The position numbers and the translations under genes were made by a program. Below are positions 1,592-12,543 of a stretch of DNA of 64,000 bases, one piece after another. Origin of the DNA: Podarcis vaucheri (lineage: Eukaryota); assembly GCA_965113315.1 (NCBI GenBank), contig OZ220363.1, one strand, 5' to 3'. The first letter of the stretch is position 1, and each line of letters starts with the position of its first letter. The notes beneath the pieces were generated by a model. That model was given only the letters and a program-made list of their open reading frames with translations, searched no databases and was not told where the DNA came from.

Positions 1592-1673
1592 ATGCTTTAC
1601 TATTTCATACACTTTGAAAACGGTTGGCGATTTACTTTGATCTTTCTCGGTGTTTACTTCTTAAAGTGCTGTG
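1592..1673 (+). CDS. NAV2: Candidate alternative first coding exon of NAV2 (MLYYFIHFENGWRFTLIFLGVYFLKCC)
   Basis: ATG at 1592, 27 open codons plus G, then a GTG|GTAAGT donor. Phase 1 matches the acceptor at 11179 (G+AG = Glu). No expression evidence. Confidence 0.5.
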
Positions 1674-9427: not shown

Positions 9428-10217
9428 TACATTGGTTTACAGTCAATGGTACCCTTGAGCTCTGCCTTTTTAGGTGCATTTAGCATAACTTGTGAAAGAG
9501 CCCATATGGGTTGACGATTCACCAATTTAATGTGTGTGCTAATTAATCCATGAAAGGCTCTTCTCCCTGCATCTGGGTCTGTTAATAAAATTTCTCCTGC
9601 GCCATGCCTTTCTGTGGCTCCTGGCATAACGCTTTCTGGGGAGGAAACTGCAGCAGAGACCGTCCAGTTTTAACGGGTTGTGGTTAATAATCCAACACGC
9701 TGGAAATCTTCCCACATCCTAGCAATGCCTTCTTCCTATAAAACAAGCGTACACATCTGCTCTTCTAGTTAGGACGTAACAGTGTGAAATGACCATGGGC
9801 TTATTACAAGAGGGTTCTCCTGGAAATTCACATCCCTGCTACGTAAGGAAGATGGGTGTGCTTGGAAATTTGAGGTGGTCTGGTATGGATCATGCGAGGG
9901 AGGTTAACAGAGCTTTATCTTCAGTGAGCAGCCAAAAGTGAAGCAAAACAGCCTCTGTGTGGCTGCAGCAGCAGTTAGTGATTCACAGAACAGCATTCAC
10001 AGTTTCCCCCCACAAACTGCTGCAAACATTCACTCTCAGCCGTTGTTTATTTTTAAGTTCAAATTTTTTCTTTTTTTCTTTTTATAAAAAAACCAGCTTG
10101 AGAAGCGCTATATGCCGTTTATTGCTAGAGGATCTGGGACGGCAGGTAAAAGCCGTTAATCCCCAGCAAGCTCCTGGGCAGACTAACAGTCAGAGATGAC
10201 AAAAGTTAATTGGAAAC

Positions 10218-10321
10218 ATGAGCAGCATAACAGAAGACATATTTGCAGTAATTGGGATGTAATGTCTCCAGAAGAGAGAGTTTGCAAAGAGTAACTTTAA
10301 AAAAGAAGTGGCTCTCAAGAG
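10218..10321 (+). other. NAV2: Candidate alternative first exon of NAV2 with a 1-nt frameshift or UUG start (…GCNVSRRESLQRVTLKKKWLSR)
   Basis: Frame open from TTG 10252 to an AG|GTGGGT donor (10321/10322) in phase 1, in frame with exon 11179. Removing 1 nt at about 10252-10256 links it to ATG 10218. Confidence 0.35.
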
Positions 10322-11178
10322 GTGGGTAAGCAAGTGTGGTTCTTATGCTCTCGTATTCATTGAATGAGACGCTTTCAAACAGACAGAATCAATAAGAGAT
10401 TTGGACTTGCCAAGGAAGCATTTTCAGCTAGCTCTTTTTACTCCAGCTGGTTTCAATTATGAGATAAAGATGTATCGTTTATTGTTGCTGCGTGAGTAAG
10501 GATATGATGAGTTTCGGTTTTGTGGATTTGGGTTTGATTCAGTGTTTTACTGGACTAGAAACTGAGCTTGCAGTTATCAGAAGGATCTTCTGATAGAGTG
10601 TGCATGTGTGTGTTGTGCTGTTTGATCCATGTTACAGTTGGATTTTTGCCAAGTCGCAAACTTCAGCAGAGCTAATTCTGCTCAGTATAAAGCAGACAGT
10701 TTGGGTTATAAAGTTTTAATATTTTTTGATTTTCTAATAGTATGCTGTTAGTGTCTGATCAGGATACTCTGACACACACTGACCATGTGCATTTATTTGA
10801 ATGTAATTGCTGTTAGGTAACATCTAAAATACATTATTCTCTATTATTTGGTAAGCAACTAAAGGTAGACAAGGTGATTCATAGCAATAAGAACAGAAGG
10901 TCCCTGCCAGAAGGCTTAAAAAACACACAACTTAATAATTTTAATTGTTGATGATTTGATCGTGCTATTATTTTATTGCCCCCCCGACCAAAACAAAAAT
11001 AAAACAGATTTTGTTTTGAATGACATAGTGTTGTGTACAGGTCATATAAAACGTTACCTCAGTATTTCGTAGCTGCTGTTAGATGTCAGCATTTTGTGAA
11101 AGCAAGCTGTGTTCACCTGAAGACTTTCCAAAAATCATGGCATCATGATTTTCTTTTCTTTTTGTTTTCTGTCTCCAG

Positions 11179-12292
11179 AGCCAGCAGACAATTTAGCCTC
11201 TCAGCCCACAGGAATGAATGAAAATGCACCACCTTCAACCCAAAGCAGCAGTAGCAACAACATTGCCGGTTGCAATAACTCCTCAGCCATCCCCCAGCCC
11301 AACTCTGCCGTTAAACCCTGGCGCAGCAAGTCACTCAGTGCCAAGCACACAGCTACGTCTTCCATATTATCAGTAAAACAACAGGTCCAGGAACCTCCGA
11401 AATCCTCTCCAGAGATGGTCAAACCAACTCCCAACGGTCAGAAATCCATGCTGGAAAAGCTGAAGCTTTTTAATACAAAAGGAGGCTCCAAAGCAGGAGG
11501 GTCATCCCTTGAATGTCCGGGGTCTCGGGACACTAGTTGTGAAAGGCTAGAGGCCCTCCCTAGCTTTGAGGAAAGTGAAGAGATTGAAGCTGCGAATCGG
11601 AACGCAAACAACCCCCCATCAAACAGTCCCAAAATTGCACTCAAGGGAATTGCACAAAGAACGTTCAGTCGGGCACTGACCAATAAGAAGAGTTCCCCAA
11701 AGGGCAATGAGAAAGAAAAAGAGAAGCAGAAGGATAAAGAAAAGGAAAAGAGCAAAGACGTTGCCAAGAGAATATCCGTAACCGAGAAAGCAGATGTGAA
11801 AGAGGAGCTGAAAGAAGAACAGATCCCACCAGCTACAACCGAGATGCCAAAAAAATCCTCCAAGATCGCAAGCTTTATCCCTAAAGGAGGAAAGCTAAAC
11901 AGTGCCAAGAAGGAGGCACCTGCCCCTTCGCACAGTGGAATACCAAAACCAGGGTTGAAAACCGCCACAGGGAAATCCTCAAGTGCCCCAAGCTGTTCGG
12001 CAAAGGATGGCGAGAGAAGCCGCAGTGGGAAGCCTGCCTCAGGCCTCTCTCATCAGAAGCCCCAGCTGGACGGCAGGAATTCCAGTTCCACGTCAAGTTT
12101 GGCCTCCTCTGAAGGGAGAGGCATTGGAGGGGTGCCTGCTCTGAGTACTAGTAGCAGTACCCAGGCTGTCAATGGGCCCACAGGCAGTACCACACAGACC
12201 ACAGGAAGCAATACTGTGAGTGTTCAGCTACCTCATCCGCAACAGCAATACAGCCACCCGAATACTGCCACAGTAGCACCATTCATGTACAG
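11179..12292 (+). CDS. NAV2: Neuron navigator 2, large internal Ser/Pro/Lys-rich exon (1114 bp, phase 1-2)
   Basis: Pyrimidine tract plus CAG acceptor; AG|GTAGGA donor. Peptides KPWRSKSLS, QKSMLEKLKLFN, KIALKGIAQRTFSRALTNKK, KIASFIPKGGK and HPNTATVAPFMYR are recognisable NAV2 sequence. Confidence 0.97.
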
Positions 12293-12543
12293 GTAGGAGA
12301 ACCTTTTTAAGCAGGGTGTGTCAAGTCTGACTTGCTTAGCGTAGTCTGCTTCTTCTGTGGCATGCTTTCTCTAGAAGTAGGAAAAAACCTACAATAACAA
12401 CTTGAGTTTGGTTTCCACCCCAAACAAGCGTTCCAGATCCTAATAAGCAGCAGACTTGTGGTGTGCGTAGGACAGAGCTTCTTTTTATTTGTGTCTCGAG
12501 TTAACAGTGAAAGCGACACAAAAGAAGAAATACAACTGTAGTA

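Follow-up and report, generated by a model that had tools for sequence, protein, structure and literature searches.

Can an intron of the nerve-guidance gene NAV2 in the lizard Podarcis vaucheri supply the gene with a lipid-anchored N-terminus, or does the stretch that looks like one serve another purpose? Close to the 3′ end of this intron, a frame opened by the codon TTG reads Gly-Cys-Asn-Val-Ser and runs through a set of basic residues to a splice donor, in the manner of a membrane-anchoring signal. All positions given here are those of the window, the whole 64,000-nt stretch of contig OZ220363.1 that was analysed. In a protein search, the product of the exon starting at 11179 was 99% identical to Podarcis muralis NAV2; it corresponds to residues 346-717 of P. 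muralis isoform X1, and four more NAV2 exons follow downstream within the window. Because the canonical upstream NAV2 exon lies beyond the window, at G000:C1:61864694-61864849, the exon ending at 10321 stands about 0.9 kb short of the 3′ end of a NAV2 intron of about 22 kb. The exon region is single-copy in the genome. The features concerned are as follows.

9850 to 10321, + strand: transcribed alternative 5′ exon of NAV2, from RNA-type contigs that reach 9850 or slightly beyond; its 3′ end is given by the junction
10112 to 10159, + strand: upstream open reading frame (uORF) of 15 codons, out of the NAV2 frame by a frame check
10196 to 10294, + strand: uORF of 32 codons with G at −3, overlapping the TTG and containing an internal ATG at 10262
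10218 to 10262, + strand: uORF of 14 codons with A at −3, overlapping the TTG; its final codon is ATG 10257, followed by TAA at 10260-62
10249 to 10251, + strand: in-frame TAA abutting the TTG; on the spliced RNA it closes the NAV2 frame 35 codons 5′ of ATG 11214
10252 to 10321, + strand: 23 open codons in the NAV2 frame, an SH4-like look-alike (TTG-Gly-Cys-Asn-Val-Ser..., seven basic residues)
10322 to 10327, + strand: splice donor GTGGGT, used (joint in run X17, loose end in run X16)
10326 to 10331, + strand: competing donor GTAAGC, use not seen (0/2 junction-bearing contigs)
10322 to 11178, + strand: intron of 857 nt, GT..AG, with acceptor AG at 11177-78 (joint in X17)
11179 to 12293 (3′ end approximate), + strand: shared NAV2 coding exon, by match to P. 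muralis isoform X1
11214 to 11216, + strand: first in-frame ATG, with G at −3; putative start of a NAV2 lacking the actin-binding calponin-homology (CH) domain (MNENAP...)

The sequence at ATG 10218 is AAACATGA, and TTG 10252 opens LGCNVSRRESLQRVTLKKKWLSR. From TTG 10252-54 to the donor there are 70 nt (23 codons plus one base), which end in phase 1 at AG/GTGGGT, in frame with exon 11179. An earlier note on this DNA had placed ATG 10218, TTG 10252, the donors at 10322 and 10326, the acceptor AG at 11177-78 and ATG 11214, and its letters and coordinates are all correct; deletion of one T indeed also yields, as it had said, an ATG before the glycine that is fused to the frame of ATG 10218. Details absent from that note are the TAA at 10249-51 before the TTG, the 14-codon ORF of ATG 10218 and the out-of-frame ATGs at 10112, 10196, 10257 and 10262. 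After the one-T edit, the strong upstream ATG 10218 places the glycine at position 13, and the edited form would therefore not be myristoylated without leaky scanning.

To the window we aligned 8 of 24 listed sequencing runs, among which X15, X16 and X17 come from organism E, X1 from organism A, X5 from organism D and X20 from organism G; the RNA labels of X15-X20 are a software guess. The splice is directly observed. An RNA-type contig of X17 runs from 10071 to 10321 and continues at 11179, skipping the 857-nt GT..AG intron with 79 nt on its short side, and an RNA-type contig of X16 covers 10125-10321 and then carries an 11-nt loose end equal to 11179-11189. Both come from one study of organism E, and their RNA label is a software guess, but a precise intron skip is itself RNA evidence. 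The exon is thus joined to 11179 in the phase that had been proposed for it, and of the two junctions suggested as a check, 10321 to 11179 was found in two contigs, whereas 10325 to 11179, made with the GTAAGC donor at 10326, was seen in neither of them. Use of that donor would put ATG 10196 in frame, but stops at 10292 and 10298 intervene.

Further RNA-type contigs cover the body of the exon (X17, 9850-10005, continuing 46 nt beyond the aligned stretch; X19, 9944-10094 and 10072-10222; X15, 10039-10262); depth spikes at 10035-10101 consist of 31-nt poly-T/poly-A contigs and were disregarded. The RNA-type contigs are colinear from about 9850, and those of three runs pass unspliced through a splice-acceptor look-alike at 10060-10097 (a pyrimidine run with AG at 10096-97). 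None of the contigs in the aligned runs joins the canonical upstream exon, some 22 kb away, to the exon ending at 10321. Since the contigs have no joint to any upstream exon and the intron is without real cover, we infer that this is a first exon, likely of about 400-500 nt, a length to be read in the light of the fact that contigs cannot mark a transcription start. X20 contributed the shared exon and otherwise just short pieces aligned by chance, and the run gave no orthologous first exon. About 12% of X23, a run of raw RNA, was covered and yielded 0 reads, a figure given no weight here; gaps in the cover of the shared exon were put down to filtering and likewise left out of the argument.

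The frame check shows directly that, with either donor, the exon has no ATG in the NAV2 frame that reaches the shared exon, so it is likely the non-coding first exon of an internal promoter. It holds five out-of-frame ATGs between 10112 and 10262, and depending on the 5′ end the RNA has five to eight upstream ATGs; on the spliced RNA the uORFs from 10112, 10196 and 10218 end 197, 62 and 94 nt before ATG 11214. We consider it likely that this is a non-coding, uORF-laden alternative first exon of NAV2, leading to a CH-less NAV2 from ATG 11214. The in-frame TAA before the TTG, the T at −3 of the TTG and 16 database models that start at the internal Met support this reading. The earlier note had held a non-coding exon with a start at ATG 11214 as its fallback; this is now the best explanation, by way of the GTGGGT donor, however, and not of the GTAAGC donor on which the fallback had relied. 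In outline, an internal promoter would drive an RNA with a uORF-rich leader, spliced from 10321 to 11179 as seen in the contigs. Scanning ribosomes would meet the ATGs at 10112, 10196 and 10218 and translate short uORFs, which may damp or regulate output, and, from what is generally known of uORFs, they could get to ATG 11214 by leaky scanning or reinitiation. The product, of about 2110 residues, would be without the CH domain and would keep the SxIP, coiled-coil and AAA+ parts, making it a NAV1-like navigator.

We gathered 384 navigator proteins by protein searches and cluster look-ups, and sought bearers of the peptide through the shared exon. The shared-exon motif is present in 353 of them. 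The canonical upstream exon precedes it in 296; a further 32 begin at the internal Met or beside it, many of them contig gene calls, and this set was left out of later counts; the N-termini of the remaining 25 are of other kinds, chiefly intron read-through. The named database models that begin exactly at the Met of ATG 11214 number 16 and come from 15 vertebrate species, namely lacertids (P. muralis, Lacerta, Zootoca), the amphisbaenian Rhineura, two geckos, two turtles, three crocodilians, two bats, a gerbil and a carp; the P. muralis one, isoform X10 (XP_077785673.1), is 2111 aa long. In P. muralis X10, Lacerta agilis X11, Zootoca X9, Rhineura X10, Pelodiscus X12, Alligator X2 and Myotis X6, the CH-less isoform is thus the product expected here, although such models are automated predictions known from proteins alone, in which the 5′ exon is not visible, so that their own 5′ exons may differ. 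For two of the proteins, P0209 (Zootoca X9) and P0220 (Rhineura X10), there are two transcript accessions each, suggesting that Zootoca and Rhineura have more than a single non-coding 5′ end. Among 107 distinct NAV2 segments, 104 keep the Met of ATG 11214, more than keep any other residue of the otherwise variable linker that separates the conserved K-P block from the SAIP block; in 103 of the 107, the residue before this position is G, I or V (a purine at −3). Such conservation of the Met and of the −3 purine appears as expected of a used start.

As an N-terminus, words of the GCNVS peptide occur in 0/384 of these proteins, and the same is true of words of the 10218 ORF. Cluster coverage was 10/10 members for the amphisbaenian, 12/12 for the turtle, and 15 of 16-17 members each for the crocodilian and the gecko. 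Had these groups an intact ATG-Gly-Cys exon, annotation should have picked it up; a UUG start would be missed by the prediction pipelines.

The extra T that separates the TTG from an ATG was covered by five runs (X15, X16, X17, X1 and X5; two of DNA type, three of RNA type, with the site near a contig end in X15), and positions 10250-10257 are directly seen to be free of indels in all of them. The T is therefore common to at least three related organisms (A, D and E), which leaves the earlier note's suggestion of an assembly error, and any private indel, without support; that the true sequence is ATG-GGA and the T an assembly error has, against 5/5 covering runs from A, D and E, next to no probability. 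Two variants fall within the 23 codons. At 10300, X1, X5 and X17 carry G for A, which replaces the leading Lys of KKK by Glu, and since all three agree, the allele of the window is the odd one. At 10259, G>T in X17 (one contig, depth 6.2) turns Cys3 into Phe, and X15 keeps the G. Both variants (2/2) are nonsynonymous and damage the proposed signal, which is modest evidence and weak alone, because 164 of the 207 possible base changes in the 70-nt frame (~79%) are nonsynonymous. The TTG frame stays open in the close relatives, but with the Cys>Phe change in X17 and the Lys>Glu change in three runs. At 10257-10264, the end of the 14-codon uORF, there is an overlapping start-stop-start, ATGTAATG; the X17 allele (10259 G>T) lacks the first of its ATGs.

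The orthologous DNA compared comes from close relatives only. Organism D departs from the window at 1 of the 472 nt of 9850-10321 and, over the intron, at 23 of 857 (Fisher p=0.0004); the first 379 nt of the intron are also quiet, with 4 changes. As the quiet stretch runs about 380 nt into the intron, the low divergence does not single out the exon; it is consistent with a constrained promoter-like region or leader, rather than constrained codons.

How unusual is the look-alike? The SH4-type consensus comprises Gly2, Ser or Thr at position 6, and a second signal (Cys3 or a basic run). The window frame has the Gly2 and Ser/Thr6 positions and a second signal (Cys3 and a basic run) and lacks the initiator Met before the Gly; the window and 5/5 covering runs have TTG there instead of ATG. 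We defined a strict motif as G-C-x-x-S/T preceded by a near-start codon or by an ATG one edit away, the frame staying open up to a phase-1 GT. Real DNA of the same genome has it at 20 of 7703 GTs (0.26%), and simulation produced it in 35 exons out of 40000 (0.09%); with at least four basic residues it occurs at 1/7703 GTs and in 11/40000 simulated exons (about 0.01-0.03%). A looser anchor-like rule is satisfied at 208 of 7703 GTs (2.7%), and when the donor is dropped the window has nine such motifs on both strands, two of them with at least six basic residues. The strict motif is thus uncommon, by a definition that is post hoc. The whole paralogous NAV3 intron contains nothing similar and no comparable motif with a donor; 2.5 kb of fish nav2 intron likewise have no comparable motif with a donor and no near-start-Gly frame at a donor, donors being scored with approximate frequencies. 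We conclude that the G-C-x-x-S/basic stretch is probably a chance look-alike, which purine-rich, AT-rich leader DNA could have produced.

That a strict and rare motif lies in frame with a really used junction is the best argument for a lipid anchor, which could have arisen in two ways. A minority of ribosomes might start at UUG 10252 and produce a Met-Gly-Cys-Asn-Val-Ser... NAV2, myristoylated on Gly2 and palmitoylated on Cys3, which its basic run would keep at the membrane. The frame is open from the TTG over the used junction into NAV2, G is present at +4, the strict motif is rare by chance, and there is a precedent for a targeting signal added by UUG in yeast GRS1, according to the available text of PMC13082882. 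We nevertheless regard such a start as very improbable: the in-frame TAA lies directly 5′ and thereby puts a T, a pyrimidine, at −3; two AUG uORFs in good context (10196 and 10218) overlap the TTG; no significant hairpin follows (fold z −1.4); and the signal is altered by Cys>Phe in one organism-E contig and by Lys>Glu in X1, X5 and X17. Alternatively, the exon was once the ATG-started N-terminus of a lipid-anchored NAV2, which a one-base insertion in a lizard ancestor broke, leaving a non-coding leader. Indeed, the frame is one base from ATG-GGA, the edit would give the ATG a strong context (G at −3, G at +4), chance again seldom provides the motif, and relaxed constraint would explain the damaging variants. 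We judge this, too, very improbable, because an ATG-started version is missing from all 384 proteins, the amphisbaenian, turtle, crocodilian and gecko groups have models that start at the internal Met instead, and nothing alike is found in the NAV3 paralogue or the fish nav2 intron. The earlier note had put forward both of these routes; both have weak support at most, given the poor context of the TTG, the uORFs that overlap it, the two motif-damaging variants and the empty protein search. Against any lipid anchor stand, in addition, the post hoc definition of the motif, the very many exons that such a scan inspects and, by our own estimate, the low prior probability of an acylation signal that is broken or begins without AUG. 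The wider hypothesis, in which an internal promoter gives a CH-less NAV2 that starts at a UUG among uORFs and carries a myristoyl and palmitoyl anchor, so that start stringency would switch a navigator of microtubule plus ends between cytosol (ATG 11214) and membrane, or else an anchored form with a true ATG in other reptiles, is in our view distinctly unlikely.

A different possibility is that the transcript is real but unproductive, its uORF stack blocking the main ATG and leading to nonsense-mediated decay, so that the RNA is a by-product of a promoter or enhancer or a regulatory decoy. The five to eight upstream ATGs speak for this, as do the depths of only 2.5-6 across the RNA-type contigs, contig depth being no measure of expression. 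We find it quite improbable, however, given the precise GT..AG splicing, the conserved internal Met with its purine at −3, and uORFs that are short (1-32 codons) and end at least 62 nt before ATG 11214.

The intron holds other elements of note. At 1592-1673 (+ strand), with a GTAAGT donor at 1674, there is an intact ATG-started phase-1 coding exon whose product matches the N-terminus of Zootoca NAV2 isoform X7 (P0206) at 85% identity across 26 residues. The Zootoca X7 N-terminus joins the same exon as 11179, and exon 1592-1673 can feed that acceptor; it encodes a hydrophobic 27-residue leader with Cys-Cys at its end, which makes it, as far as its translation can tell, a better candidate than the TTG exon for a membrane-targeting NAV2 start. 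As a putative second internal start for the same acceptor, it gives the intron the appearance of holding a small set of alternative starts. The segment 9159-9429 is CpG-rich, with internal short repeats and apparent inverted ends (CAGTGGTACCTCG ... CGAGGCACCACTG); by eye it looks like a small DNA-transposon-like insert, about 400 nt 5′ of the transcribed region. A metagenome scan returned one locus among 415 candidates, the fish nav2 contig L002, and its DNA has no significant similarity to the lizard exon (4/100 and 31/100 shuffles scored as well). At 1959-2537 of L002, a strong GTG/GTAAGT donor lies about 580 nt 5′ of the homologous exon and is possibly that of an analogous non-coding first exon.

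CH-less navigators have precedents. The available text of PMC9877351 describes NAV1 as being without a CH domain and reports that a shorter transcript persists in Nav2 hypomorphic mice after loss of the CH-containing one; that of PMC9985553 gives NAV2 alternate promoters. NAV1 and the shorter mouse Nav2 transcript are, like the product expected here, CH-less navigators, although the shorter transcript may start elsewhere than at the equivalent of ATG 11214, and NAV1, unlike the exon here, lost its CH domain from the gene and not through promoter choice. For the anchor, the comparison is Fyn, whose dual acylation of SH4 type joins myristoylation of Gly2 and palmitoylation of Cys3 (PMC2132482, available text). 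The TTG frame shares with Fyn-type SH4 the G-C-x-x-S and the basic residues; it differs in having no initiator ATG before the Gly, a Cys and one Lys that vary among close relatives, and no orthologous protein found. According to the available text of PMC13082882, near-cognate starts are weaker, with a −3 purine and a +4 G being of importance, and they add N-terminal extensions in yeast GRS1 (UUG) and in c-Myc (CUG). There, as at TTG 10252, an in-frame near-cognate codon lies 5′ of the AUG start; here it would add a targeting signal, as in GRS1. At TTG 10252, however, −3 is a pyrimidine, AUG uORFs span the codon and no significant structure follows.

A literature search, with most subscription papers outside its scope, returned no description of exon 9850-10321 or of NAV2 acylation, and no lipid-anchored navigator; the words 'myristoyl' and 'palmitoyl' occur 0 times in the available text of PMC9877351, and the available part of bioRxiv 10.1101/700575 deals with NAV2 exon 16 only. 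The exon was previously unpinned, and CH-less NAV2 is already predicted in databases across vertebrates. On the most likely reading, the non-coding first exon, one 5′ exon and its junction are thus pinned to a CH-less NAV2 isoform, a useful annotation of an ordinary gene architecture, which hints that NAV2 yields a NAV1-like form under uORF control. The UUG start, if true, would bring a lipid-anchored navigator and an example of an acylation signal that arises through non-AUG initiation. It would then also be relevant to the way in which navigators link the tips of microtubules to the growth-cone membrane.
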